DNA of 64,000 nucleotides from an uncultured SAR116 cluster alpha proteobacterium (GCA_902590245.1 CACIWG010000001.1:1747-65746), one strand, 5' to 3'; positions 34,463 to 50,027 are shown, counted from the stretch's first letter. Translations and numbers: made by a program. Notes: generated by a model not told the origin, from the letters alone.

Positions 34463-35989
34463 TTATATTAAAACTAATTGATCTGTTGTTTTTTTAGTTC
34501 TGACGGTTTTGACTTTTTTTCTGCTACCATGTTTATTGTAAACATTTTTAGATTTTGATTTATAATTATCATCTTTTCTTACTTTGGAAATTTTCTCTCG
34601 TGCCATTCTTACTGCCTCTTTATGATCAACAATAGGCAAAGGGTAATGCTTTCCTAATATACAACTATATTTTGTTTGTTCTTCTAAATTCATTTTCCAA
34701 GGTTCGTGTATAAATATTGATGGAACATTTTTTAATTCAGGAACCCATTTTTTTATAAACTGACCTTCTTTATCATGTTCAATTGATTGCTTGATAGGAT
34801 TATAAATTCTAAGAGTATTTATGCCCGTTACTCCTGATTGCATCTGTAATTGGCTATAGTGTATACCAGGCTCATAGTCAGTAAATAGTCTTGCCAAAAC
34901 ATAACCGGATTCCCTCCAATCAATCCATAAATCATAACTTGCAAAGCTAGTTAGCATTGCTCTCATACGAAAAGTTATCCATCCATTATGAGTTAAACTT
35001 CTCATGCATGCATCTACAAATGGAAACCCAGTAAATCCAGTTTCCCATGCTTTAAGTTTATCTATATTTGATTTTATTTCTCGCATCCCTTCATAGCTTG
35101 AGTGCATGCATTTATTTTCAATTGATGGCTGATCTTCTAATTTTTGAATAAAGTGACATCTCCAAGATAATCTCGAACTAAATGCTGATAATCCTCTTTT
35201 ATTATATTTTAGGCCTTTCTTTTCACATTTATACTTAAAATCTTTAAGTTTTTTGTAAACCTCTTTAACTGAAAGAGTTCCATAGGTAAGATGTGGAGAG
35301 AGCCTTGAGCAATACTTATCTGAATTATTAGGTCCAGAAATATTTTGTAAATAATTATCTAATTTATCATCTAAAAATTTATTTAATAATATTAAACCTT
35401 CTCTTCTTCCACCTTTTTGATATATAAAATTGTCGTCTTTAGAAAATAGGTTATTTTCCTTAGTAAGGATGTCAGACTTAATATCATGATCTAATTTTTT
35501 TAATATTTTTGGAGTTTGAAAAATGTTTTTTGACATTCTCTCATTCCTCAATCTAGACCATTCATTTCTGTCATTTAATTTTCTAATAATACCATTTGTT
35601 GGGAATTGAAGAAAATTAACATTATTCTTATTACACCAATTCGTTACATTAATATCTCTTTTATATGTCCAGTGGTTTGAAGTTTCTTCATGTGAATAAA
35701 TTGAAATCAATTCAAATTTGTTTTTAATAAGTTCAAGAAAATTAATAATATCACTATTTAAAAGCAAAAGTTCAGATTTAATTGATTTGATATCTTTTTT
35801 CAGATCTATAAGACTATCATGAATAAAATACCAATGTCTTTTAGAAGCAAAAGGTTGCTTCCAATAATCAGTTTCAAAAAAGTAAACTGGTATTGTAGGG
35901 ATATTTGTTTTAGAAGCTTCTAATAAAGGTCTATGATCGTTAATTCTTAAATCTTTCTTAAACCAGACAATTTGACACTCTTGTTTCAT
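34463..35989 (-). CDS. Cryptochrome/photolyase-family flavoprotein
   Basis: 508 aa with N-terminal VWFKKDLRINDHRPL and FAD-domain TGFPFVDACMRSL...GWITFRMRAM. Subfamily not assignable by eye. Confidence 0.85.
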   Translation of the reverse strand: MKQECQIVWFKKDLRINDHRPLLEASKTNIPTIPVYFFETDYWKQPFASKRHWYFIHDSLIDLKKDIKSIKSELLLLNSDIINFLELIKNKFELISIYSHEETSNHWTYKRDINVTNWCNKNNVNFLQFPTNGIIRKLNDRNEWSRLRNERMSKNIFQTPKILKKLDHDIKSDILTKENNLFSKDDNFIYQKGGRREGLILLNKFLDDKLDNYLQNISGPNNSDKYCSRLSPHLTYGTLSVKEVYKKLKDFKYKCEKKGLKYNKRGLSAFSSRLSWRCHFIQKLEDQPSIENKCMHSSYEGMREIKSNIDKLKAWETGFTGFPFVDACMRSLTHNGWITFRMRAMLTSFASYDLWIDWRESGYVLARLFTDYEPGIHYSQLQMQSGVTGINTLRIYNPIKQSIEHDKEGQFIKKWVPELKNVPSIFIHEPWKMNLEEQTKYSCILGKHYPLPIVDHKEAVRMAREKISKVRKDDNYKSKSKNVYNKHGSRKKVKTVRTKKTTDQLVLI

Positions 35990-36044: not shown

Positions 36045-37943
36045 TTATTCAAATCCATACTTTTTTAAAGAATTAATTATGTATGGGTAGGTAGTTAGAT
36101 GTTGATTTTGCTTTTTTAATGCAAATTTAATTTTAGATAAATGATTTTCTTTTAAAAACATTTTTACAAAATCTAAATGCTTTTTAGCAATATTAAATTT
36201 TTCTAAAGAATCATATGCTAAACCTAAATGAAGATTCCACCAGACAAATTTTTTGTGTTGCAAAGGCTCTAAAACATCAATTACTTTTTTCTTTTCTCCA
36301 CTTGTTTGATAACATTGAGCTAATAAATAATTATCCCAGGTTGCATAATTTCCAGTGTCCAATTCATAAGCTTTTTTACCTATTTCCCAACATCCTCTTT
36401 GAAATTGACATCTATTCTTTTTTACAGTTTGAAATTTTTCTGAACTTTGAAAAACATCCTTTTTCTCACATTGTCCACCAAATGCTAAACTATATCCAAT
36501 TTTACCAAGTAAATGAGGTCTCTCACCAGCTAATTTATAAGCCTTTTCAACAACATTAAACATTTCTTGCCAGTTTTTGTTAAAAAATTCAATCTGCAAT
36601 TTTGTAGCATAACCGAATGCATTCTCAGGATCTAAAATCAAACCTTGATCAATCTCTTTAGAGGCATCATTAAGCATGTATTTGAATTCGTCAGTAATTG
36701 AAAATGAAGAATATTGTGCCCGTTTTCGATCTGCTAACCATATCCATGCATCAGCATAATTAGGGTCTTTTTTAATTGATTTTTCTAAACATTCAATTGC
36801 TTTTGGATTTAAAGTTGGAGTTACAGCGCCTCGAGCAAAATTAATACATTCATAAATTGATATATCATCAGTTGCTGAAGTCGCTATCTTTTGATTTATA
36901 TCTTTAGAGAGCACTGCTCCAGCTCCTACCAATTCATTAATAATTTTTTTAATTATTTCATCTTGCAAGGCAAAAATATTTTTACCTGTCAAATCTCTGT
37001 CATATGTTTCAGACCAAATATTTGATATGTTCTTACCATCAATCAAATCAACCTTGACTCTAAGCATGTTATCAATTTGCATGATGTTACCATCTACAAA
37101 ATAAGAAGCGTTTGTTTTTTTTGATACTTCACTTAAATCTTTTGGAATTTTTTTTAAATTTAATATATTCAATGCTTTAGAAGACTTTGTTAGTTTTGAC
37201 CCTAAGTCTTGAGATATACCAAGAGCTAAAAGTTTTTCTTTTTTTGTGTCACTTAAACTTTTAAAAGGAAGTACAACTATTTTACTGGTATCAAGTTTTT
37301 TCTCAGTTTCGAAAATTCCAGTAAAAAATAATCCTATAAACACTGCAGCTATAGCACCCCCTACTAGTCCAATAAGTTTTGCCTTTGATGATTGAGTTTT
37401 TAATTTTCTTTTTTGTGAAGGGTCTAGTAACAAGTCATATGCATGAAATGTATTTTCTTTGACCTTCTGCTCACCAAGATCATTAAATTCATACTTTGTT
37501 TTCTTAGCAACCAAGTCATAAACATTCTTAGCTATTGTTATCCCACCAGGCTGTGCCAAGGCCTCTAAACGAGCGGCAATGTTTACACCATCGCCCATAA
37601 GGTTCTTATCACCTTGCTTTACAACATCACCCATGTTTATACCTATACGGTATTCTAATTTGACCTGTGTTGTTTCTTTGGCATTACGCTCTTTAATTTT
37701 CTTTTGGAACTCTACAGCCATATTGATAGCTGCTACAGCGCTTGGAAATTCTGCGAAGACAGAGTCTCCACCTGTATTAAATATTCTACCCTTCTGCTTT
37801 TTTATGATGGGCTCAATTATATTATTACATTCATTGAGACTTGCTAAAGTAGCATCTTCGTCTTTTTCCATATGTTTACTGTAGCCAACAACATCCGTGG
37901 CAAATATAACAGCAATTTTACGGTCGGTATCTTGAGTAGACAT
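36045..37943 (-). CDS. Class III adenylate/guanylate cyclase (N-terminal catalytic domain, one TM, periplasmic TolB-N-like plus TPR-like sensor region), paralog A
   Basis: 632 aa with IFATDVVGYSKHME, NTGGDSVFAEF and GDGVNIAARLE. TM segment is LIGLVGGAIAAVFIGLFFTGIF. Confidence 0.85.
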   Translation of the reverse strand: MSTQDTDRKIAVIFATDVVGYSKHMEKDEDATLASLNECNNIIEPIIKKQKGRIFNTGGDSVFAEFPSAVAAINMAVEFQKKIKERNAKETTQVKLEYRIGINMGDVVKQGDKNLMGDGVNIAARLEALAQPGGITIAKNVYDLVAKKTKYEFNDLGEQKVKENTFHAYDLLLDPSQKRKLKTQSSKAKLIGLVGGAIAAVFIGLFFTGIFETEKKLDTSKIVVLPFKSLSDTKKEKLLALGISQDLGSKLTKSSKALNILNLKKIPKDLSEVSKKTNASYFVDGNIMQIDNMLRVKVDLIDGKNISNIWSETYDRDLTGKNIFALQDEIIKKIINELVGAGAVLSKDINQKIATSATDDISIYECINFARGAVTPTLNPKAIECLEKSIKKDPNYADAWIWLADRKRAQYSSFSITDEFKYMLNDASKEIDQGLILDPENAFGYATKLQIEFFNKNWQEMFNVVEKAYKLAGERPHLLGKIGYSLAFGGQCEKKDVFQSSEKFQTVKKNRCQFQRGCWEIGKKAYELDTGNYATWDNYLLAQCYQTSGEKKKVIDVLEPLQHKKFVWWNLHLGLAYDSLEKFNIAKKHLDFVKMFLKENHLSKIKFALKKQNQHLTTYPYIINSLKKYGFE

Positions 37944-37966
37944 AGATGAGTTAACTATACATATTT
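36898..37966. repeat. Direct repeat copy 1 (1,069 bp, reads as identical to 42431-43499)
   Basis: Line-by-line comparison by eye at offset 5,533 bp. The encoded proteins are identical for ~349 residues and the nested antisense ORFs are identical. Confidence 0.9.
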
Positions 37967-37989
37967 AATGCTAATTGAAAATATTTAAT

Positions 37990-38178
37990 TTAACTAAAAT
38001 TTCCAGAAATTAGTTTTGCACTTTTGAATTCTATTTTTTTTGGTTTTTTTCCATAAAATCGAGATATTCTTAGTTGGTCTTTGGCTTCGTCTGTAGCTTC
38101 TTGCAGTGATCCTTTAATTGGTCTACTCGACCAATCTCTACCATCTACTACAAATGTTATAATATATGTTGTTTCCAT
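37990..38178 (-). CDS. Hypothetical small protein
   Basis: 62-aa ORF co-directional between the MBL lipoprotein and cyclase A. Confidence 0.35.
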   Translation of the reverse strand: METTYIITFVVDGRDWSSRPIKGSLQEATDEAKDQLRISRFYGKKPKKIEFKSAKLISGNFS

Positions 38179-38214
38179 AATATTTACCTACAAATAATTA
38201 AATTACCTTTTTAT

Positions 38215-39363
38215 TTAATCAATTAATTTTTTCCACCAATTATATAATTTTGGTTTTGATTTTAGATCAACACTTTCACCAATCATTGGTATTAATAAAT
38301 CTATGTTCTTATTTTTAGCCCTTCTTTCAATTTCAACTGGTGGATCATACCAATCATGCATAGCTAGTGTGAACATACCCCATCCAATTGGCACCAAATA
38401 TTTTCCTTTTAAATCTTCAAATCCCTTTATAACTTCATTAGGCATATTGTGTGCAGCTCTCCACCTTTCGTTATATTGTCCACTATCCATAAAAACGATA
38501 TCAAATGGTCCAAATTTTTTTCCTATATTTTGATAATGATCAGCATAACCAGAGTCACCACTAAAAAATATTGATTTTTTATTGGATCTAATTACCCAGG
38601 ATGACCACAATGTCTTTTGTGAATCAATAAAACCTTTTCTTCCGGAGAAATGTTGTGCAGGTGTGCATATAAAATGTAAATCTTCAATAATAATTTTATC
38701 CCACCAATCTAATTCAATAATATTATTATTTGGAACTCCCCATTTAAGTAAGTGAGATGAAACACCTAATGGTGCAATAAATTTTGCATTTTTATCAATA
38801 AAATACTTAATTGTATTTATATCTAAATGATCATAGTGATCATGAGATATCAATATGTAATCAACATGAGGCAATTCATCTAGAACATATACTGGTTTTT
38901 GATATCTTTTTATAAACCAGCTAAAAGGAGAAGCAGATGGTGAAAAAACTGGATCAGTTAAAATTATTTTATTATTTATAGATATCATTAGGCTTGAATG
39001 ACCAAACCAAACAAATTTAATATTATTTAATGATTTTTTGAAATCCTCATTTATCAGATTTTTTTTCTCTGGCAAAAATACCTTTGGATTTGTCTCATTA
39101 GAACTAAAAAACCAGTTATTTTTGAGGTTTTTTAATGGTTTTTTCCAAAAACTTCCCTCTTCTTTCATTTTTTCAATAATACCAATTTCTTCATTAACGA
39201 ATTTATCTTGATTTAAATCATAATTCTCTGATTTAGTTAAAGATAATTTATATTCACCAGATGGTATATTCCCAAATTGTTCACAACTTGTAAGAAATAA
39301 AATGCTTAAAATAGATAATAATGAAACTATCATAAGACATAAATATAAAATTTTTTTAAACAT
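38215..39363 (-). CDS. MBL-fold metallo-hydrolase lipoprotein (NAPE-PLD/COG2220-like)
   Basis: 382 aa with lipobox FLTSC, ISHDHYDHLD and the later FSGDSGY. Confidence 0.8.
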   Translation of the reverse strand: MFKKILYLCLMIVSLLSILSILFLTSCEQFGNIPSGEYKLSLTKSENYDLNQDKFVNEEIGIIEKMKEEGSFWKKPLKNLKNNWFFSSNETNPKVFLPEKKNLINEDFKKSLNNIKFVWFGHSSLMISINNKIILTDPVFSPSASPFSWFIKRYQKPVYVLDELPHVDYILISHDHYDHLDINTIKYFIDKNAKFIAPLGVSSHLLKWGVPNNNIIELDWWDKIIIEDLHFICTPAQHFSGRKGFIDSQKTLWSSWVIRSNKKSIFFSGDSGYADHYQNIGKKFGPFDIVFMDSGQYNERWRAAHNMPNEVIKGFEDLKGKYLVPIGWGMFTLAMHDWYDPPVEIERRAKNKNIDLLIPMIGESVDLKSKPKLYNWWKKLID

Positions 39364-39370
39364 ATTTTAA

Positions 39371-41536
39371 TTATTTTTCAGAATATTCTACGATTGGTGA
39401 CCAATTTTTAATTAAAGTTGTTTTTTTAAGTAAATTTTCACATCTACTTTTGTATAAAAAATTGATGTGATCATCAGGATTAATATCAAAAATTTTATTA
39501 AATAATTTCGAAGCATTTTTAAATTTTTTATTATGATACTGTTCAATACCTTTTTCAAAGTCTTTAATTGTATCTTTTTTTAGTTTATATAAATCGCTCG
39601 CATTACTATCGACAACTTCATATATCGAAAATGACTCGGATTTCCCTTTAACTTTTACTATATCAACGAATCTAGTAAATAAATTTTTTTGCTTTATTTT
39701 TTTCTTTGTGTCTTCGCTAATTAAAATATCAGATTTGTAAACTTTCGTTAAACTTTCTAATCTTGATGCAATATTTACTGCATCACTTATTACAGAGCCT
39801 TCCATTCGATTAGATTCACCTAGTGTGCCTAACATCATCTTTCCTGTATTTATACCTATGCCAATTTTAATTGGGTCTTGTCCACTTATTAAGGATTTTT
39901 GATTATAAGAATTTAAACTTTTGTGCATTTCAATAGCTGCAATAATTGCATCTTTCTCAGATGTTTTAAACAAAGCCATAACACCATCACCCATGAATTT
40001 ATCAATATAACCATTATTTTTTCTTATTAACGGTCCAATATTATTTAAATAAGAATTTACAAATTTAAAATTTTCTTCTGGTGACATTTTTTCTGATATA
40101 GAGGTAAAAGATCTAATATCAGCAAACAAAATACTCATGTTAATACTAACCTGGTCTCCAAGCTTAACATCTAAAATACTATCCTTTCCTAAATATTCTA
40201 AAAGTTGCTTCGGAACAAATCTTTGATATGCTTTTGTTAGTTTTACCTGTTGTTCAAAAAGTGAATTTTTCATGTCATTTAGTTGCTGTGCCACAGCAAA
40301 ACCAAACGTAATGAACATTGCTATAAATAAAACACCTACCGAGGAAGATATTATAAACCAAGTTACCCAAGTAAAATCTAAAATAAGGTAAGATATCAAA
40401 GACACTGGAACAGATAGAAATGGTAGAAGAAATGAAACAAACAAGTATTTAGAATATTTGCTACCTTTTTTCCATAATTTATATGATAAAATTGCTGAAG
40501 TTAGTAATAATAATAAAAAAGGTATTGTTAAAAACTTCATCTGGATAATACCAGGACCACCTCGATCAGGAGGATAATTCACCAAATCAATATATTTTTC
40601 AGTTGGCCAATTCAATGAAGTAAAAAAGTTAATTATGACCATTAATAAATAAAATATGATTATAAATATATATATCTTGTCAACTTTTGGAAAAGTTATT
40701 CTTAAATTCATTGATGACCTAAAAAATTGTAAAAGTAGAATAAATAAAATTGAAATCTGACATAATGAAAATTCGCTATGATAAACCCAACGATCTATAG
40801 ATAATACTTTACCTATTACTAGATTTGTTGTTGATAATATTGATAGTTGGAACAAGCTCAATGACAGCCAAATATATGGGCCCTTAGAGACTATAAACAT
40901 AAACAAATAATAAAGTGCAAAAGAAAATACGATTGATATAGTAGCTATATTTGACAATATACTTAGATATTGTTGGAAACGAACAGTTTCCCAAGTTCCA
41001 ATGCCAATTCTATCTAGGCCATTTGTCTTTCCCATGTACCTATCTAAAGGATTATTTCTAAAATAGTTATAAACTATAGTTACTTCATTTTTAGGTAATA
41101 AAATTTTATATTTGTCTAAAACCCTTCCTTCATCAATCCATCTATCAGTTTCAAAATTCCAATAGGAATACATCTTTTCTAATCCATTAAAATCAGTAAA
41201 AACCTTTTTTTCAGTATTCCAATTATGAAAAAGACCTATTTCATTTGTATTAAAATTATTTAAAATTTTAAATCTAATCCAATATCCATCAACTATAGAT
41301 TGGTAATTTTTTAGATTCTTTTTCCAACTTCCTTTTTTGAGTTCTTTAAGAGTTGCATTATGATCGTACCCTTCTAAATACTCAAAGTGTTTGTATGGAA
41401 TATTTTCTAAACTTTTTGAGCCAATTGTAAATGGTGCTAAAATTTGATCATTACTTTTAGCTAAGGATAATTTTTGAAAAAAAAATAAATTAGAAAAAAA
41501 AGAAAAGCATATTAGTGAAAAGGATAGAAATTTCAT
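39371..41536 (-). CDS. 7TM-DISM receptor (DISMED2-like extracellular domain plus 7 TM) fused to a class III nucleotidyl cyclase
   Basis: 721 aa with a signal peptide, an ~160-aa extracytoplasmic domain and ~7 hydrophobic helices. C-terminal motifs are ILFADIRSFTSISE, KFMGDGVMALF and SDAVNIASRLE. Confidence 0.85.
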   Translation of the reverse strand: MKFLSFSLICFSFFSNLFFFQKLSLAKSNDQILAPFTIGSKSLENIPYKHFEYLEGYDHNATLKELKKGSWKKNLKNYQSIVDGYWIRFKILNNFNTNEIGLFHNWNTEKKVFTDFNGLEKMYSYWNFETDRWIDEGRVLDKYKILLPKNEVTIVYNYFRNNPLDRYMGKTNGLDRIGIGTWETVRFQQYLSILSNIATISIVFSFALYYLFMFIVSKGPYIWLSLSLFQLSILSTTNLVIGKVLSIDRWVYHSEFSLCQISILFILLLQFFRSSMNLRITFPKVDKIYIFIIIFYLLMVIINFFTSLNWPTEKYIDLVNYPPDRGGPGIIQMKFLTIPFLLLLLTSAILSYKLWKKGSKYSKYLFVSFLLPFLSVPVSLISYLILDFTWVTWFIISSSVGVLFIAMFITFGFAVAQQLNDMKNSLFEQQVKLTKAYQRFVPKQLLEYLGKDSILDVKLGDQVSINMSILFADIRSFTSISEKMSPEENFKFVNSYLNNIGPLIRKNNGYIDKFMGDGVMALFKTSEKDAIIAAIEMHKSLNSYNQKSLISGQDPIKIGIGINTGKMMLGTLGESNRMEGSVISDAVNIASRLESLTKVYKSDILISEDTKKKIKQKNLFTRFVDIVKVKGKSESFSIYEVVDSNASDLYKLKKDTIKDFEKGIEQYHNKKFKNASKLFNKIFDINPDDHINFLYKSRCENLLKKTTLIKNWSPIVEYSEK

Positions 41537-41577
41537 ATATTTAAATATATTTTAAAAATCTTTGAAATAATCAGACA

Positions 41578-43476
41578 TTATTCAAATCCATATTTTTTTA
41601 ATACTTTTTCATATACTGGGTAGCTTAATTTTTCATTATTATATTTTTTAAATATATCATAAATTTTAGTTAATTTATTTGTCTTAATAGCTAGTTTAAC
41701 ATTTTCAAAATGACCTTCTGCAGTTTTAAATTTATTCTCAAAATGAGATGCTACACCAGAGTGTATTTCGTACCAAAATTTCTTTTGATGAGGCATTGTA
41801 CTCATCATCTTTAATGCACTTTTTCCATCTTTCACAATATTATAACATACAGCTAACATATAATTATCCATAACTACAAAATTCCCTGTGTCCATTTTAT
41901 TAGCAATTAACCCCATTTCCCAACAACCACGATGAAACTGACATTCATTATTTAATGTATCCTTGGGTTGTTCATTGGAACTACTTACATTGTCTAATGT
42001 ACAATTACCTCCAAATGCAACATTCATTGCTAAATTACTAAGTACGTTTGGATCTCCTGAGTTTTGTTCAAATGCTTTATCAGCTGAATTAAACATTTGT
42101 TCCCAATTTTTTTTGTGAAATTCTATCTGAGTTTTAACCATAAGACCTGTTGATGATTTAGGATCAAGTCTTAAGGCATTTTCAATATATTTTGATGCGT
42201 CCTTCAACAAATGATTATTTTCTTGATCAGGATAATCTGCATATAAATTTCTGGTTCGCGCAGCTAACCATACCCAGGCATCAGCATAATTAGGATCTTT
42301 TTTAACAGATTCCTTTAAACAATTTACTGCTTTCATTCTATCTTTTAAAACTATTTCTGAATTTCGTGCTAGATTTATACATTCATATATCGTTATATCA
42401 CTGGTTTTACTACTTGCTATTTTTTTATTAATATCTTTAGAGAGCACTGCTCCAGCTCCTACCAATTCATTAATAATTTTTTTAATTATTTCATCTTGCA
42501 AGGCAAAAATATTTTTACCTGTCAAATCTCTGTCATATGTTTCAGACCAAATATTTGATATGTTCTTACCATCAATCAAATCAACCTTGACTCTAAGCAT
42601 GTTATCAATTTGCATGATGTTACCATCTACAAAATAAGAAGCGTTTGTTTTTTTTGATACTTCACTTAAATCTTTTGGAATTTTTTTTAAATTTAATATA
42701 TTCAATGCTTTAGAAGACTTTGTTAGTTTTGACCCTAAGTCTTGAGATATACCAAGAGCTAAAAGTTTTTCTTTTTTTGTGTCACTTAAACTTTTAAAAG
42801 GAAGTACAACTATTTTACTGGTATCAAGTTTTTTCTCAGTTTCGAAAATTCCAGTAAAAAATAATCCTATAAACACTGCAGCTATAGCACCCCCTACTAG
42901 TCCAATAAGTTTTGCCTTTGATGATTGAGTTTTTAATTTTCTTTTTTGTGAAGGGTCTAGTAACAAGTCATATGCATGAAATGTATTTTCTTTGACCTTC
43001 TGCTCACCAAGATCATTAAATTCATACTTTGTTTTCTTAGCAACCAAGTCATAAACATTCTTAGCTATTGTTATCCCACCAGGCTGTGCCAAGGCCTCTA
43101 AACGAGCGGCAATGTTTACACCATCGCCCATAAGGTTCTTATCACCTTGCTTTACAACATCACCCATGTTTATACCTATACGGTATTCTAATTTGACCTG
43201 TGTTGTTTCTTTGGCATTACGCTCTTTAATTTTCTTTTGGAACTCTACAGCCATATTGATAGCTGCTACAGCGCTTGGAAATTCTGCGAAGACAGAGTCT
43301 CCACCTGTATTAAATATTCTACCCTTCTGCTTTTTTATGATGGGCTCAATTATATTATTACATTCATTGAGACTTGCTAAAGTAGCATCTTCGTCTTTTT
43401 CCATATGTTTACTGTAGCCAACAACATCCGTGGCAAATATAACAGCAATTTTACGGTCGGTATCTTGAGTAGACAT
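41578..43476 (-). CDS. Class III adenylate/guanylate cyclase, paralog B (same architecture as paralog A)
   Basis: 632 aa. The first ~349 residues are identical to paralog A, the remainder is diverged but collinear, and both end in KKYGFE. Confidence 0.85.
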   Translation of the reverse strand: MSTQDTDRKIAVIFATDVVGYSKHMEKDEDATLASLNECNNIIEPIIKKQKGRIFNTGGDSVFAEFPSAVAAINMAVEFQKKIKERNAKETTQVKLEYRIGINMGDVVKQGDKNLMGDGVNIAARLEALAQPGGITIAKNVYDLVAKKTKYEFNDLGEQKVKENTFHAYDLLLDPSQKRKLKTQSSKAKLIGLVGGAIAAVFIGLFFTGIFETEKKLDTSKIVVLPFKSLSDTKKEKLLALGISQDLGSKLTKSSKALNILNLKKIPKDLSEVSKKTNASYFVDGNIMQIDNMLRVKVDLIDGKNISNIWSETYDRDLTGKNIFALQDEIIKKIINELVGAGAVLSKDINKKIASSKTSDITIYECINLARNSEIVLKDRMKAVNCLKESVKKDPNYADAWVWLAARTRNLYADYPDQENNHLLKDASKYIENALRLDPKSSTGLMVKTQIEFHKKNWEQMFNSADKAFEQNSGDPNVLSNLAMNVAFGGNCTLDNVSSSNEQPKDTLNNECQFHRGCWEMGLIANKMDTGNFVVMDNYMLAVCYNIVKDGKSALKMMSTMPHQKKFWYEIHSGVASHFENKFKTAEGHFENVKLAIKTNKLTKIYDIFKKYNNEKLSYPVYEKVLKKYGFE

Positions 43477-43499
43477 AGATGAGTTAACTATACATATTT
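42431..43499. repeat. Direct repeat copy 2 (1,069 bp, reads as identical to 36898-37966)
   Basis: See copy 1. Identity ends at 43499/43500 on the leader side and 42431/42430 on the CDS side. Confidence 0.9.
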
Positions 43500-43522: not shown

Positions 43523-45340
43523 TTAATCTATTAATTTGATACCTCCACCGTTTTCAGAACCTTGAGAATGAATCCTTAATGTATTAAAAATATTTCTTCC
43601 AAAAGATTGGTTTTTTTTCATATCTTTTAAAAGTGAATTTTTTCGTTTACTTATGTCAGTTAAAATATTTAATTTACCATTATTTGCATCTATTTCAATT
43701 TCATCGTCATCTTCAATTTTTCCTATAACACCATTATCAATTGCTTCAGGAGTTACATGGATCGCTGCAAGAATTTTACCTGAAGCACCAGACATTCTTC
43801 CATCAGTTAATAACGCAACTTTAAATCCTAAATCTTGAACATTTGATAACATCGGTGTTAATGAATGTAATTCTGGCATTCCATTAGCTTTGGGTCCTTG
43901 GTTACGAACAACAATAATAACATTTCTATTCAATTTTCCTTTTTCATAAGCTTTTTTTACTTCTTCTTGATCGTCAAATACCAATGTTTTTGCCTTAATG
44001 TATCTAAACTGTTCTTTGACAGCTGAAATTTTTGCAACACATTTACCAATATTTCCATTTAACATTTTTAAACCACCATCATTTTGATGTGGTTTTTTTA
44101 CATATCTAAGAATATCTAAATCAAAGGACTTAACCTCACTTTTTTTCCAATTTATTTTAGAGTTTATTAGTGTTGGTTCATATACATAATCAAATAAATT
44201 TTCTCCCCAAATTGTTTGAGCAGATCCGTCTAATAATCCATTATTTAACAATTCACCAATTATAAAACTAACACCACCAGCTGCATGAAATTGATTTATA
44301 TCAGAACTACCATTAGGATAGACCTTTGATAATAGTGGTATGATTTTTGATAAATCATCAAAATCTTCCCATAAAAGCTTTATACCAGCCGCCGCTGCCA
44401 TTGCTGGAAGATGTAAGGTATGATTAGTTGAACCACCAGTAGCAAGCAAACCTATTATTGCATTAACAAAACTTCTTTCATCAATTATTTTTCCTATTGG
44501 CCTAACATCTCTTCCTTTACTATTTATTTTAACAGCTTGTTCAACGGCAAGAACATTATAGGCATGTCTTAAATCACTGTTTGGATGAACAAATGCCGCC
44601 CCTGGAATATGAACACCCATAATTTCCATTATTATTTGGTTAGAATTAGCTGTTCCATAAAATGTACAAGTTCCTTCACCATGATATGCTTTGCTTTCAG
44701 CTTTTATTAATTCTTCTCTACTAACCTCACCCTTTGCAAAGGCCTTTCTTACATTTGCTTTTTCTTCATTTGGAAGTCCGCTTGACATTGGGCCCGCTGG
44801 CATGAATATAACTGGCAAATATCCAAAAGATAAAGCTCCTATAAAAAGTCCTGGGATAATTTTATCACAAATTCCTAAACAAATTGCAGAATCATAAACA
44901 CCATGACTTAATGCAATTGCAGTTGACATGGCGATGACATCTCTTGACATTAAAGATAACTCCATACCTACTCTACCTTGAGTAATTCCATCACACATAG
45001 CGGGAACACCTCCAGCCATTTGAGCTGTTGCTCCATATTGATGAGCTATTGATTTAATAAGACTTGGATAATTTTCATAAGGCTTATGAGCGGATAACAT
45101 GTCATTATATGAAGAAACAATCCCTATATTTGGCTTTTTATTCATTAATATATTTAATTGATCATTCTTTGGTGAAGAGGCTGCTACATGTGCCATGTTT
45201 GAGCAGGAAATTGTATTTCTATCAATTTCACTACTATTTTCCATATCATTAATATTATCTAAATATTTTTTTCTAGTATCTTGACTTCGGTCAATGATTC
45301 TTTCTAAAACTTTCTTTATTTCTGGATGCAATTCAGTCAT
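43523..45340 (-). CDS. edd: Phosphogluconate dehydratase (Entner-Doudoroff)
   Basis: 605 aa in the IlvD/Edd family, with CDGITQGRVGMELSL, TDGRMSGASG and an Edd-type N-terminus. Directly follows pgl. Confidence 0.88.
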   Translation of the reverse strand: MTELHPEIKKVLERIIDRSQDTRKKYLDNINDMENSSEIDRNTISCSNMAHVAASSPKNDQLNILMNKKPNIGIVSSYNDMLSAHKPYENYPSLIKSIAHQYGATAQMAGGVPAMCDGITQGRVGMELSLMSRDVIAMSTAIALSHGVYDSAICLGICDKIIPGLFIGALSFGYLPVIFMPAGPMSSGLPNEEKANVRKAFAKGEVSREELIKAESKAYHGEGTCTFYGTANSNQIIMEIMGVHIPGAAFVHPNSDLRHAYNVLAVEQAVKINSKGRDVRPIGKIIDERSFVNAIIGLLATGGSTNHTLHLPAMAAAAGIKLLWEDFDDLSKIIPLLSKVYPNGSSDINQFHAAGGVSFIIGELLNNGLLDGSAQTIWGENLFDYVYEPTLINSKINWKKSEVKSFDLDILRYVKKPHQNDGGLKMLNGNIGKCVAKISAVKEQFRYIKAKTLVFDDQEEVKKAYEKGKLNRNVIIVVRNQGPKANGMPELHSLTPMLSNVQDLGFKVALLTDGRMSGASGKILAAIHVTPEAIDNGVIGKIEDDDEIEIDANNGKLNILTDISKRKNSLLKDMKKNQSFGRNIFNTLRIHSQGSENGGGIKLID

Positions 45341-45950
45341 TTAATAACTCAATATGAAGGTTGTTTTTTCTATTATTCAAGAGATAATACAATGGTATAT
45401 TTTTATTAGTATAAGCATCTTTTAAAACTTCCTGTTTTATTTTTCCTTTAATTATAATTATGATTAACTTAGATGATAATATTAACGGCAAGTTCATTGA
45501 GATTCTTGGAACAAAGGGATCACCATTAGCTTTTATTTCATTAATATTTAGTTTAGATTTAGGATCTAAAGTATTGGTATTATTTATCATATTCGGGAAT
45601 AAAGATGCAAAATGACCATCACTTCCTATACCTAATAAACATATATCTAAAGGAAATTTAAAATTATTGTCTTTATAAAGATTTTTATTTAAAGGAATGA
45701 AATTACTTATTTGAGCTTCATTTTTAAGTAAATGATTTCTTATCAATTTTTGATTACTATGATCATTTTCTGTATCAACTAATCTATCATCAACAAGAGT
45801 AATTTGAACCTTTGACCAATCTAATTTTTGTTTTGATAATTCATCAAAAATTTTAATTGGACTTGTTCCACCAGGAACTGCCATTGAAGCACTTTCATAT
45901 TTATCAATGCTTAAAGAAAGATTTTTAACTATTAATTCAATTACGTCCAT
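45333..45950 (-). CDS. pgl: 6-phosphogluconolactonase
   Basis: 205 aa with PGGTSP, VDDR and LLGIGSDGHFASLFP. Confidence 0.8.
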   Translation of the reverse strand: MDVIELIVKNLSLSIDKYESASMAVPGGTSPIKIFDELSKQKLDWSKVQITLVDDRLVDTENDHSNQKLIRNHLLKNEAQISNFIPLNKNLYKDNNFKFPLDICLLGIGSDGHFASLFPNMINNTNTLDPKSKLNINEIKANGDPFVPRISMNLPLILSSKLIIIIIKGKIKQEVLKDAYTNKNIPLYYLLNNRKNNLHIELLND

Positions 45951-45953
45951 AAG

Positions 45954-47402
45954 TTATTCTTTCGGGTCAATCCATTCGTGATTATTTCTGATTAAAATTT
46001 TATCTTCTGGACCCATTGTTCCAGATCTATACAACTGGGGTGGATTTGACTGAACTTTATCAACAATAGGATCAATAAAATCCCATGCAGCTAAGACTTC
46101 ATCTAAGCGCATAAATAAGGTTTGGTTTCCTCTAGCTACATCCATTAGTAATCTTTCATAAGCATCTGGCAATCTTTCAACAAATGTTTCATTAAATGAT
46201 AAATTTAATTCCGAAGGAAAGAATCTCATTCCACCTGGACCTGGCTCTTTAGATGTTAACTTTAATCTTAGACCCTCATTCGGCTGAACTCTTATTATAA
46301 GCATATTAGGTTTATCATTATTTTTATCAAAATCTCTTAATTTAGAAAAAATATTATGTGGTTTATTTTTAAAAGTTATTATAATTTCACTTGCTCTAGT
46401 CGATAATTTTTTTCCAGTTCTGAGATAAAAAGGAACTCCTGCCCACCTCCAGTTATCAATACCAACTTGCAATGCAATAAAAGTTTCAGTATTAGTTGGC
46501 TTTCCAAATTCATTTTCATAGCCTTGATATTGGCCAGTTTGTATATCACTGTCACTTAATGATCTTAAAGATTTTAATATACGAAGTTTCTCGTCCCTTA
46601 CTTGATTTGCATCAAAATATGAAGGTGGTTCCATAGCAACTAAACAGAGTAACTGAAGCAAATGATTTTGAACCATATCTCTAATAGCGCCATATTCATT
46701 ATAATAAGAAATTCTATCAGCAACCCCAATTTCTTCAGCTACAGTAATTTGAACATTTTCAATATTTTTATTATCCCATTGGTTTTCAAAAAAAGTATTT
46801 GCAAACCTCAAAGCCATTAGATTTTGAACCGTTTCTTTTCCTAAATAATGGTCAATTCTATAGATTTGTTCTTCCTTAAATGTTTTGTATAAATTTTCAT
46901 TGATCTCTATTGCAGATTGTTTATTAAATCCAATTGGCTTTTCAACAACCACTCGACTATGAGTAAAATTTAATTTTGATTTTCTTATTAAATTACATGT
47001 TGTTTCAAAAAGATTGGATGATATAGCAAGATAAAAAATACATATTTGTTTTTTTTTTAAATTTTTATTTAATAATAAAATTAGATCATTAATTCCTTCA
47101 CCAGTAACTAAATCGAGCGTTATAAGCGATAAAAGTTTGTGAAAATTTTTCCAATTATTTTGTAAAGTTTTACTCAAATAAATAGAATTAAAAGTATGTG
47201 GTTTTATTAAATTTAAGATTGTTTCTAATTCTGTTTTTTTGTGTAAGCAAATAATAATATTTGATTGACTATCAATTTGCTTATCTACAAATCTCCAAAA
47301 TAAAGCGGGAATTATTTTTCTTATAGAAAGATCACCTCCACCTCCAAAAATTACAAAATCAGTAGGACTTATTTTTGCAGCATTTGGAATAGAATTTTTC
47401 AT
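45954..47402 (-). CDS. zwf: Glucose-6-phosphate 1-dehydrogenase
   Basis: 482 aa with FGGGGDLSIRKIIPAL and the active-site RIDHYLGKE. Confidence 0.95.
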   Translation of the reverse strand: MKNSIPNAAKISPTDFVIFGGGGDLSIRKIIPALFWRFVDKQIDSQSNIIICLHKKTELETILNLIKPHTFNSIYLSKTLQNNWKNFHKLLSLITLDLVTGEGINDLILLLNKNLKKKQICIFYLAISSNLFETTCNLIRKSKLNFTHSRVVVEKPIGFNKQSAIEINENLYKTFKEEQIYRIDHYLGKETVQNLMALRFANTFFENQWDNKNIENVQITVAEEIGVADRISYYNEYGAIRDMVQNHLLQLLCLVAMEPPSYFDANQVRDEKLRILKSLRSLSDSDIQTGQYQGYENEFGKPTNTETFIALQVGIDNWRWAGVPFYLRTGKKLSTRASEIIITFKNKPHNIFSKLRDFDKNNDKPNMLIIRVQPNEGLRLKLTSKEPGPGGMRFFPSELNLSFNETFVERLPDAYERLLMDVARGNQTLFMRLDEVLAAWDFIDPIVDKVQSNPPQLYRSGTMGPEDKILIRNNHEWIDPKE

Positions 47403-47535
47403 ATTAACCTATCTACATTTATAAATACTTAAAGAGATATTATGAAATAAATGTCTTGTAAAATGGAATTTATTTAACCTATTGCCTGTTTTTGGATCAA
47501 ATATGAACTTTTTATAAATTAATAAGTGAATTAAA

Positions 47536-48144
47536 TTACAATACTTCACCCTTGATAAGATCTAATACTTCAATTTTACCAATCTTAGAGATTAAATCTC
47601 TCAAAGTTATTCCTTTAGCCTTAGTTTTTGGAGGAGCAAGGTATTCTGCTATTGGCTCAATAGATAAAAATCTTTTTCTTTCTTGAGGATATTTCCGTGA
47701 ATGAAATACTGGAATAGTGTCTGAATCTAATTCAATAAAATCCTCTGGATGATCTTGTAGATTAATAACTGATTTTGGTGGAATTTGAACATTAAAGTTT
47801 TGTTTACAGTAATCAGGTTGTATCATGAAAATATTATTGTGGTAGTTTGTATGATCAACTGCTATACAAGAATAGCAGTTTTTACAATATATTCTGGTAG
47901 AACTTGCATCTTCTTGTAAATGAGTAACAACCATACTTTCTAAACCAAAATAATTTAATATATCAGAACGGAAATAAACTGAATAAAGAATATTTTTTGG
48001 TTTTTTACCTCCATTCTTTTCAGCCCAACTTAATGCTTGTCTACAGTCCTCACATGCACACATTACTGAATATTTAGGAGATGTGTCATTTAATTCTATT
48101 CCACATTTACCACAAGAGCATGAAATTTTATTTTTAATCTCCAT
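47536..48144 (-). CDS. GFA-family protein (glutathione-dependent formaldehyde-activating-enzyme-like)
   Basis: 202 aa. Cys pattern CSC...CACEDC...CKNCYSC matches the two Zn sites of Gfa-type proteins. Confidence 0.6.
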   Translation of the reverse strand: MEIKNKISCSCGKCGIELNDTSPKYSVMCACEDCRQALSWAEKNGGKKPKNILYSVYFRSDILNYFGLESMVVTHLQEDASSTRIYCKNCYSCIAVDHTNYHNNIFMIQPDYCKQNFNVQIPPKSVINLQDHPEDFIELDSDTIPVFHSRKYPQERKRFLSIEPIAEYLAPPKTKAKGITLRDLISKIGKIEVLDLIKGEVL

Positions 48145-48216
48145 AATATAACTTTAAAAAAAAAATTAAATTTGAAATATTTTAATTTTTAAAAATTAAG
48201 AGTGCTTATAAGATAA

Positions 48217-49551
48217 TCACAATCCCTTCCATTCTTTTCCTAGTAAGCACAAAAACATTCCTGCCCCTGTTATTATGAGACCAAAACTAACTGAATATAA
48301 AACGTAATCTATAGACAAATTTCTGGATACTGCAAGATACCCAAATAAGACCACGCATGAAAATCTTAAAATCCCAACTAAAATCGGCTTTATCATTTTA
48401 CCAGTTCCTTGACTTGAAAAATAAATAGCCTGACCAAAACCAAAAAGACAATAAAACGGTGTTACAATTAAAATATATTTTAAACAATATTTAATTACAT
48501 CAGGGTTCGAAGAAAAATTTTGGTATAAAAATTGAGGAAAAAGATTAATAAAAAGTCCAATAAAACCAATAATCAAAAAACATACAATTCCTCCAGTAAA
48601 AGCTATCTTTCTTGCTCTGGCAAACTGTTTAGAACCAAAATTAATACTAACAGATGCTGTTAAAGCTGCACCTATTCCAAATATTATAGGTGTTAAAATT
48701 AACTCTAATCTTGCACCTATGCCATATCCTGCTAGAGCATTTGGACCAAAATTTCCAATATAACCCGTCATAACACCTACTGTCAGCGCTATAGTAATGC
48801 TATTTAAAAGACCAAGACCTCCAACTTTCATAATATCAATGAAGATTAAATTTGAAAATTTATGAAATTTAACTTTTAAAATACTTTGCTTAAAAATTAA
48901 ATAATAAAACAAATAAGCCATCATAATTATATGGCAAATAACTATCGAAATAGCGGGACCAAGAATACCGAATTTAAAACTGTCATAGATACCAAATGTA
49001 AAAACATATGATAAAATTATTTGACATAAACTTCCAATTACAATCGCCTTTGAAGGGATATAAGTATTTCCTAAACCTCGAATTATTGAAGCTAATATAT
49101 GAGTTAGCCAAAAGAAAATTGAAAATGCAAAAAACACTTTTGAATAATTAATAGCCCCAACTAAAATTATTTCAGTTGCACCCATAAATTTAAAAATATT
49201 TTTTGAATATAATAAAAATATTATCGTAAAAATTAATGCCATTCCAAATGCAACTAAAATCGAATGAAAACAAGATGCTTCAGCTCTTTTAATATCTTTG
49301 CTACCGACCGCTCTTCCAACTGAAGAAGTTACTCCACCACCAATAGCTCCTGCAGCCATCATTAACATGAGCATTTGAAATGGAAAAATTATGGCTATTA
49401 TAGCTAAAGCTTCAGTACCTAAAAAACCAAGAAACATAGCATCTGCAAATGTTGCTATTGTCCAAGCAATCCAAGCAAATGCATTTGGAAGACCAAGCTT
49501 CCATATTATTTTTAAAATTGATCCATTTAAGATTAGAGGTATGTTTGATAT
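48217..49551 (-). CDS. MATE-family efflux transporter; start codon unresolved
   Basis: Polytopic, MATE-like. The first ATG (49437) lies inside TM1. The frame is open upstream to 49572 and encodes ...SILKIIWKLGLPNAFAWIAWTIATFADA. AAGGAG sits 6 nt before an ATA at 49551. Confidence 0.75.
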   Translation of the reverse strand: MSNIPLILNGSILKIIWKLGLPNAFAWIAWTIATFADAMFLGFLGTEALAIIAIIFPFQMLMLMMAAGAIGGGVTSSVGRAVGSKDIKRAEASCFHSILVAFGMALIFTIIFLLYSKNIFKFMGATEIILVGAINYSKVFFAFSIFFWLTHILASIIRGLGNTYIPSKAIVIGSLCQIILSYVFTFGIYDSFKFGILGPAISIVICHIIMMAYLFYYLIFKQSILKVKFHKFSNLIFIDIMKVGGLGLLNSITIALTVGVMTGYIGNFGPNALAGYGIGARLELILTPIIFGIGAALTASVSINFGSKQFARARKIAFTGGIVCFLIIGFIGLFINLFPQFLYQNFSSNPDVIKYCLKYILIVTPFYCLFGFGQAIYFSSQGTGKMIKPILVGILRFSCVVLFGYLAVSRNLSIDYVLYSVSFGLIITGAGMFLCLLGKEWKGL

Positions 49552-49601
49552 TTTAGTCTCCTTAAACTTTTTTCAAAATAGCAATTTTAAATACAATTTA
49601 A

Positions 49602-50027
49602 TTACTTTAATGGATAAGTCGATGTAGCATGACACAGAACATCTCTATTTTCTTCTGAGTAGACCTTAGTCTCACCAATAGCTATAGAACTTCCAAATCT
49701 TTGAACCTCGCTTTCAATTATAAAATAATCTCCAAATGCTGGCCTTATAAAATTATTATTTTGAGACAAAGTTCCTCTTTGCGATTTAGTTGAAGTGTTC
49801 ATGGCAATAGACATAACTGTATCTATTACTGACATTAAAATTTGTCCTGACAAAGCTCCTGTTACAAATTGATAATCTTTAGAATTTTCTAATCTTGCAA
49901 CAACTTTACCTTTTTTGATACTTAAGAATGACAACTTTAACTGCTTAACATATGGAGCAAAAACATAATCATATATCTTTTCCACATTTTCCATTGTTAT
50001 TGTATCTTCAGGTAATTTTGGGTTCAT
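49602..50027 (-). CDS. PaaI/hotdog-fold thioesterase family protein
   Basis: 141 aa of typical size, with a hotdog-like central pattern (GALSGQILMSVIDT). Confidence 0.7.
   Translation of the reverse strand: MNPKLPEDTITMENVEKIYDYVFAPYVKQLKLSFLSIKKGKVVARLENSKDYQFVTGALSGQILMSVIDTVMSIAMNTSTKSQRGTLSQNNNFIRPAFGDYFIIESEVQRFGSSIAIGETKVYSEENRDVLCHATSTYPLK

Follow-up and report, generated by a model that had tools for sequence, protein, structure and literature searches.

The DNA analysed here is a stretch of 64,000 nucleotides (the 64-kb window) from an uncultured alphaproteobacterium of the SAR116 cluster (GCA_902590245.1, CACIWG010000001.1:1747-65746), and all coordinates given below are window positions. 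It carries two genes, A and B, whose products appear to be membrane nucleotide cyclases, and a long direct repeat with copy 1 in gene A and copy 2 in gene B. We use N for the front half shared by both proteins (residues 1-349) and CA, CA' and CB for the types of sensor half that follow it; labels beginning with L designate the loci used for comparison. The features concerned are the following, with lengths in amino acids (aa):

36045..37943, minus strand: gene A, 632 aa; N module and helical sensor of type CA (aa 350-632)
41578..43476, minus strand: gene B, 632 aa; N module as in A and helical sensor of type CB
36898..37966, minus strand: repeat copy 1; 23 nt of leader and codons 1-349 of gene A; probable conversion recipient
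42431..43499, minus strand: repeat copy 2; 23 nt of leader and codons 1-349 of gene B; probable donor
36045..36897, minus strand: CA sensor half; 44% protein identity to CB
41578..42430, minus strand: CB sensor half; 95-100% protein identity to CB in L017, L019, L053, L055 and L065

An exact pairwise comparison of 36898-37966 with 42431-43499 gave 0 mismatches in 1,069 bp at an offset of 5,533 bp. The match is maximal, as the next base differs at both ends, so the identical repeat proposed in the initial annotation stands without any possible extension; "identical" is to be taken as identical or nearly so. The block is made of a 23-nt non-coding leader before the ATG and codons 1-349, and the sharp switch described at its end was also found: residues 1-349 of the two proteins are identical, and the other 283 residues are collinear and 44% identical up to the C-terminus, which is KKYGFE in both. 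The sensor halves of A and B differ by about 1.0 synonymous substitutions per synonymous site (dS). At the same 5,533-bp offset, the identity per 50-nt window was about 46-70% deeper in the genes (36050-36700) and only about 20-40% from 37967 on, where the block gives way to its upstream flank. The leaders of A and B show a weak homology that reaches position -50 or so from the ATG, with 17 mismatches from -24 to -60; since this homology continues beyond the block, the upstream end of the exact match sits within a homologous leader. This pair is the only long repeat in the window, where no inverted repeats were found. The two copies are separated by 4,464 bp that contain the sensor half of gene B, a cyclase gene with a seven-transmembrane (7TM) region (T), a metallo-beta-lactamase (MBL) gene (M) and a 62-aa open reading frame (ORF; s); the initial list of the bracketed segment was right in the last three and omitted the first. 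Given that about 20% of these positions differ in paralog pairs of other genomes without conversion, the probability of finding no mismatch by chance is about 1e-101, which excludes chance as the cause of the identity.

On the evidence of profile and fold comparisons, A and B are predicted to be membrane class III nucleotide cyclases with a cytoplasmic catalytic domain. In a Pfam profile search, aa 8-163 matched the class III cyclase domain PF00211 with 51.9 bits (cut-off, 21.9 bits), and the closest solved structure to this domain is 3mr7 of Silicibacter pomeroyi (E = 5e-30). Foldseek superposed the predicted cyclase fold on 3mr7 and on Rv1900c of Mycobacterium tuberculosis with target-normalised TM-scores of 0.88-0.89. 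The metal-binding residues D17 and D60 and the transition-state pair N121/R125 align with 3mr7 residues and are invariant in 31 homologs. In class III cyclases the substrate-specifying pair is Lys/Asp for ATP and of the Glu/Cys type for GTP. The canonical pair is absent here: N56 and N114 occupy the Lys/Asp positions and are invariant across homologs down to 37% identity, which makes the product nucleotide of both enzymes uncertain. The sole transmembrane (TM) candidate is a hydrophobic stretch at about aa 190-211. In the predicted structure it is followed by a juxtamembrane alpha/beta domain (aa 218-340), by a segment of low confidence (aa 340-356) that links this domain to the sensor, and by a stack of 15 helices (aa 363-628) with a predicted local distance difference test score (pLDDT) mostly of 85-96 in the AlphaFold model. 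The end of the repeat block, at codon 349, falls inside this low-confidence linker. Pfam matches of the juxtamembrane domain were to FlgO and FlgT only, all sub-threshold; those of tetratricopeptide repeat (TPR) profiles (aa ~380-405) were all below the Pfam gathering scores, and no NCBIfam family scored above its cut-off. The fold search with the whole model returned cyclase domains only, with no structural TPR match, and left the periplasmic domains unnamed by fold. Four invariant Cys residues in the sensor half are consistent with a periplasmic location, and the model portrays this half as a putative periplasmic, helical and TPR-like domain. The initial reading of the domains as cyclase, TM helix, juxtamembrane domain and TPR-like helical sensor thus holds.

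The origin of the identical block was approached by comparison with related loci. The contig L064 (GCA_902547715.1), from a single-amplified genome (SAG), carries the MBL gene, the 62-aa ORF, N, CA and a photolyase gene (P) in the order M-s-N-CA-P. Aligned with the window, L064 shows 42 mismatches between 37938 and 36927, all within the block, or 3.9% of its 1,069 bp. The upstream flank has just 5 in 734 bp and the CA half 1 in 853 bp, so that the excess in the block is highly significant (Fisher P = 1e-11). A 3.9% patch that coincides with the repeat within near-identical flanks would be the expected trace of a segment replacement in one of the two lineages. The metagenome contig L053 keeps the gene order of the window over 16.6 kb with 96% identity. 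Apart from a single site, the two blocks within L053 match each other from -23 to +1061. At 24 sites both window copies have one base and both L053 copies have another, and the number of paralog-specific sites is 0. In the SAG AG-899-E11, an A-type and a B-type gene lie 50 kb apart on a single contig whose flanks are unrelated to the window; this pair is identical from -17 to +1106, again with the exception of one site, and its block is only 88% identical in protein to that of the window. Thus the comparison with related genomes called for in the initial annotation returned an identity step of their own in both L053 and AG-899-E11, with one mismatch each: A and B are 100% identical in the window, where the nearest ortholog is at 96%, and 99.9% identical in each of the other two pairs. 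The B genes of AG-899-E11 and AG-892-I13 were also considered as a second conversion patch and rejected as such; their identity breaks at about +1075, yet the upstream flank has diverged too, so that this breakpoint is a recombination junction and not a clean footprint.

The same discordance between the two halves was found across the clade. In the N region the nucleotide identity was 82.2% for A-A, 81.8% for B-B and 81.9% for A-B comparisons, whereas in the C region it was 57.3% for A-B versus 79-85% within each type. Neighbour-joining trees agree: those of the N region lack any A/B structure and those of the C region split A from B. Not every pair has been homogenised. In the unconverted pairs of AG-898-B14, AG-390-L20 and AAA536-G10, the N halves show a dS of 1.2-1.6 and 0.07-0.13 nonsynonymous substitutions per nonsynonymous site (dN), from which it follows that the A/B duplication is old. 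The same pairs bear on the idea that strong purifying selection would by itself account for an identical catalytic half. This half is indeed strongly constrained, with a dN/dS of about 0.06 in the unconverted pairs and about 0.4 between the sensor halves of A and B. Yet the identity extends over every synonymous site and over 23 non-coding bases, and unconverted pairs are synonymously saturated, so purifying selection accounts for an identity of about 80% and not of 100%. With dS near 0 in the window, L053 and AG-899-E11 versus 1.2-1.6 in other genomes, we rejected it as the sole cause, for which the probability is practically negligible.

If the whole gene B had been duplicated recently and its 3' half then exchanged for a foreign CA allele, this would explain why A and B are collinear, of the same length and share the KKYGFE end, and the replacement of sensor-half alleles was in fact seen (CA versus CA' in strains otherwise 96-97% identical). 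However, anciently diverged N halves of the A and B types (dS 1.2-1.6) occur in several genera, which makes the duplication old. The upstream context of gene A, namely the 62-aa ORF and the leader, is unlike the one found at gene B and recurs in single-copy relatives, and the comparison with L064 places the recent change in N and not in the sensor half. We consider this sequence of events very improbable.

The footprint in the sequence, its recurrence in other lineages and the incongruent phylogenies are direct observations, and a recent gene conversion between the old paralogs A and B is the explanation that we hold to be likely for the identity of their front halves. The preference of the initial annotation for conversion or recombination over a whole-gene duplication is borne out by the L064 patch, by the homogenised pairs of L053 and AG-899-E11 and by the incongruent trees, and the comparative evidence equally supports its view that a single output module is maintained with two distinct periplasmic sensors. 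In the proposed explanation, A and B would be old paralogs and the 5' 1,069 bp of one of them would have been recently overwritten by the sequence of the other, through non-reciprocal homologous recombination between direct repeats located 5.5 kb apart. RecA-type gap repair could be the enzymology, and mismatch density may have limited the extension of the heteroduplex: the tract would fill the stretch that was already similar enough for pairing and would stop where mismatch density climbs sharply. Its ends would thus correspond to -24, in the weakly homologous leader, and to +1047, at the start of the CA allele in the predicted linker. In strains with the CA' allele, A and B share sequence to +1061; in the window CA begins at +1047, past which A/B mismatches appear every few bases. 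Since the leaders diverge from -24 and the CA allele starts at +1047, the tract appears to fill the whole pairable stretch. Conversion would have acted independently in other lineages as well, and because of this the front half would evolve in concert clade-wide while the sensor types CA, CA', CB and others persist. The sensor types themselves would be carried between strains by recombination, and any selective benefit would be conjectural.

Gene B is the probable donor and gene A the probable recipient. The N block of the window is nearest to B-linked N blocks, with 8-9 mismatches to the two copies of L065 and 19 to that of L055, and copy 2 is 9-25 mismatches away from the N blocks linked to B in other strains, a distance that agrees with the divergence of its flanks. 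The A-linked block of L064, by comparison, is at least 27 mismatches away from everything sampled and 42 from the window. These data fit, and suggest, a B to A direction.

Several points weigh against this interpretation. The direction is not proven, as it may be L064 that underwent conversion, by a second copy of its own. The two-copy arrangement is not universal, as L002, L003, L017, L018 and L019 were assembled with a single copy at the locus. It is formally possible that the N segment was independently replaced by the DNA of another strain. In addition, a short-read assembler can pass through a simple loop by reusing one repeat edge; the copies would then come out identical and a few real differences would be masked. 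The same ambiguity affects L053, L065, L066, L074 and L008.

In its strongest form this last point makes the repeat an assembly artefact: there would be one real copy, or two strains (edd-N-CB-T-M-s-P and s-N-CA-P, edd being the dehydratase gene upstream of B) would have been joined via a shared edge, or differences between two real copies would have been collapsed or polished away. Both single-copy haplotypes do exist, one in L055 and the other in L002 or L064, assemblers treat the loop inconsistently (the unit appears twice in L065 and as a closed cycle in L066), and many SAG contigs break within the N region. However, T-M-s-N-CA are linked in independent contigs, a single-cell genome links M-s-N-CA-P (L064, L069, L073), and T is preceded by an N-C gene in every case (L003, L018, L053, L055, L065 and L066). 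Because overlaps in unique sequence link T-M-s-N-CA and an N-C gene always precedes T, the two copies can be placed on one chromosome. The single-cell assembly of AG-899-E11 has both genes on one contig, and since the pairs of L053 and AG-899-E11 keep one mismatch each, their copies are not simply one edge reused. A true difference of 3.9%, with a single-nucleotide polymorphism about every 25 bp, would probably not be popped as a bubble, and the exact A and B proteins are both recorded from a single 113,143-bp NCBI contig. Exact-protein look-ups of A, B and P0001 in the contig index returned no match. An artefact is, in our judgement, improbable. The breaks of SAG contigs in the N region were rejected as proof of long repeats and count as weak support, as the contig ends share short stretches only (for example 52 nt in L039/L047) or are diverged. 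The breaks do recur at certain positions of the front half: contigs start at aa 211-235 in L030-L035, L038 and L011 and end at aa 47-123 in L041, L048 and L050-L052. This suggests shorter exact repeats between the paralogs of those genomes, by which the gene family fragments short-read assemblies.

The surroundings of A and B include these genes:

34463..35989, minus strand: photolyase gene (P); downstream flank of gene A and fixed right border of a variable slot
37990..38178, minus strand: 62-aa ORF (s); conserved, immediately upstream of gene A
38215..39363, minus strand: MBL-fold protein (M); between the repeats
39371..41536, minus strand: cyclase with a 7TMR-DISM-like membrane region (T); between the repeats
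43523..45340, minus strand: ILVD/EDD-family dehydratase; last gene of the zwf-pgl-edd block and upstream flank of gene B

The position of the dehydratase gene within a zwf-pgl-edd block makes edd more likely than the label "ilvD" that it had been given. The exact 62-aa protein was found in 117 blocks of the public collection and has no family match; in most of the contigs examined its ORF directly precedes an N-type cyclase gene, in the others it forms the left border of the variable slot, and it is a real, conserved small gene. The first residues of the MBL-fold protein resemble a signal peptide and end in LTSC, which could plausibly be a lipobox and fits its earlier description as a lipoprotein. 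A promoter and terminator scan returned fewer sites than in shuffled sequence and was uninformative on transcription units, and the Rfam search gave one distant tRNA only.

With X for the zwf-pgl-edd block and Y for the three-gene block at 47536-50027, the gene orders of the window and related loci are:

Window: Y X N-CB T M s N-CA P
L053: Y X N-CB T M s N-CA' P
L055: as L053, with gene A missing
L054: a Sel1-repeat gene in place of A
L002: Y s N-CA' P
L017: Y s N-CB P
L003 and L018: X Y s N-C T M P
L056: T M P

The 62-aa ORF and the photolyase gene border a slot, which holds a Sel1-repeat gene in the metagenome contig L054 (1985-3675) and is empty in another, L055 (11371-11507), and which behaves as a cargo site and not just as a cyclase locus. 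This hypervariable slot, in which strains exchange sensor halves, had been missed by the initial annotation. In L003 and L018 the zwf-pgl-edd block is found on the opposite side of the block at 47536-50027, a local rearrangement beside the cyclase locus (window 43523-50027).

The slot raises the question of whether the repeat arose by partial duplication or by cassette insertion, with the 5' half of B pasted before CA, or with a complete N-CA gene imported between s and the photolyase gene from a strain whose N was by chance the same. The cargo differs indeed by strain (N-CA, N-CA', N-CB, the Sel1-repeat gene or nothing), and the CA half is common to distant lineages: its protein is 96% identical to the A gene of the distant SAG AG-899-E11, with a dS of 0.34 versus 2.2 in the saturated front halves, which indicates that the import of sensor halves does happen. 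Nevertheless, L064 already has s, an N block of its own, CA and the photolyase gene within near-identical flanks, with N alone differing, and the simplest change is a replacement of N in situ. The sampled N blocks of other strains are all at least 8 mismatches from that of the window, while the resident paralog is identical, and the recurrence of the pattern in L053 and AG-899-E11 also speaks against import or insertion. We regard such an origin as quite improbable, and conversion in place as the likely one.

Sensor halves have moved among close relatives too. CA is shared by the window and L064, but L053, whose flanks are 96-97% identical, has CA' (dS 1.25); the CA and CA' alleles are only 82% identical, even where the strains are nearly the same elsewhere. 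L069 is identical to gene A of the window until about +1250, after which the allele switches. Among the nearest A-type proteins, 7 of 12 have an unchanged sensor half but 1-8 amino-acid changes in the front half. In P0003-P0008 and P0012 an invariant sensor is joined to a varied front when compared with gene A, the reverse of the deep-time pattern. Taken at face value, these protein sequences suggest that the CA allele spread recently onto varied front halves.

The initial annotation had also pointed out that the bracketed segment could be deleted. The predicted product of a deletion between the repeats consists of edd, a B-type leader, N, CA and the photolyase gene. The Tara scaffold L074 has this exact edd-N-CA junction with the CA allele of the window, and the SAG contig L008 has the same arrangement with CA'. 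In L065 the repeat unit is traversed twice, and the whole contig L066 (5,661 bp) amounts to the 5,533-bp unit plus 128 bases, a closed cycle N-CB-T-M-s. Both are suggestive of a reciprocal product or a tandem array; for L066, a cycle in the assembly graph and an excised circle are further possibilities. All four contigs, including the two with the deletion junction, could stem from an assembler that skips or loops a graph cycle. The scaffold L070 is palindromic and looks like an artefact.

The 52 related loci, taken from species-representative genomes, are all single-cell or metagenome-assembled. Nearly all are labelled SAR116 cluster and a few just Alphaproteobacteria or Paracoccaceae. The window has a G+C content of 29.9%, and the low-GC streamlined SAR116 subclade of Roda-Garcia et al. 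has 30.55 +/- 0.87% (PMC8547437). The SAR11-type setting evoked by the initial annotation was accordingly abandoned; with relatives labelled SAR116 and of low GC, the host fits this streamlined subclade and not SAR11. A third paralog occurs elsewhere in the clade, with only residues 1-338 in common (57-63% identity) and an unrelated C-terminal part (L006 12121-13167, L010 17477-18526, L012 19774-20823, L015 17476-18525 and L040-L043). It often lies a few kb from an A-type gene, and none is present in the window.

Streamlined ocean bacteria are usually described as poor in paralogs and repeats. The locus offers a clear, datable case of domain-limited gene conversion in an uncultured member of this group, where recombination would have two opposite effects, as it erases differences between the signalling halves and spreads distinct sensor halves through the population. 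By keeping the front half near-identical between paralogs and very similar between strains, conversion might let this half supply the homology for sensor swaps. We can speculate, with more doubt than confidence, that it serves as a population-wide "constant region" that enables sensor halves to be swapped between loci and strains, with the slot as a landing site and perhaps with mixed A-B dimers, formed through the identical catalytic halves, integrating two signals. If so, this streamlined planktonic lineage would hold its sensor repertoire in the population and not in each genome. On the practical side, repeats of this kind interrupt short-read assemblies of such genomes or make them loop, a tree built from the full-length protein would be misleading, and long reads are needed before the locus can be reliably called present or absent in a metagenome bin.

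In our limited literature search, no published description of this case was found. As single proteins, A and B resemble 3mr7 and Rv1900c/LipJ (1ybt, 1ybu) in the metal-binding Asp residues, the Asn/Arg pair and the cyclase fold. Unlike in those two proteins, the cyclase domain of A and B is N-terminal and followed by a TM helix and periplasmic domains, and unlike the Lys and Asp of canonical enzymes, Asn56 and Asn114 are invariant in the A/B family. Rv1900c also has Asn at the first substrate-specifying position. As a pair, A and B recall the tufA/tufB genes and the rRNA operons, where bacterial paralogs evolve in concert by gene conversion, and the babA/babB and sabA/sabB genes of Helicobacter pylori, where segmental conversion occurs beside divergent ligand-facing parts. 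Long-lasting cases in prokaryotes have been surveyed (PMC6053082), conversion rates have been reported for rRNA operons (PMC8022953), conversion hotspots are described in antigen families of M. tuberculosis (preprint PMC13061034, available in part), and the neighbouring mammalian receptor paralogs TLR1 and TLR6 have a divergence limited by gene conversion according to the available part of PMC2077338. In common with the tuf and rRNA cases, paralogs within a genome are closer here than orthologs between genomes, and the process depends on homology and recurs in several lineages; the exchange, non-reciprocal in those cases, would probably be so here too. Yet homogenisation is partial in A and B, restricted to the leader and 349 of 632 codons with the remainder kept as two old and distinct types, and it affects accessory signalling genes in a variable locus instead of core translation genes. 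The H. pylori and, as far as that preprint goes, the M. tuberculosis families are similarly mosaic, with homogenised segments beside divergent ligand-facing ones and repeats that also yield chimeras and deletions. Their products are surface proteins that interact with a host and are presumably subject to immune selection, whereas A and B are predicted inner-membrane cyclases of a free-living oligotroph, for which phase or antigenic variation is not implied. Like TLR1 and TLR6, insofar as the latter source covers them, A and B are adjoining receptor paralogs whose divergence is limited by conversion, the TLR pair being eukaryotic. The locus is thus a clean natural example of a known process, gene conversion, and not a new kind of system; what is particular to it is that the tract boundary lies at a predicted domain linker, that the host is a streamlined uncultured plankter and that the same locus also circulates sensor halves.

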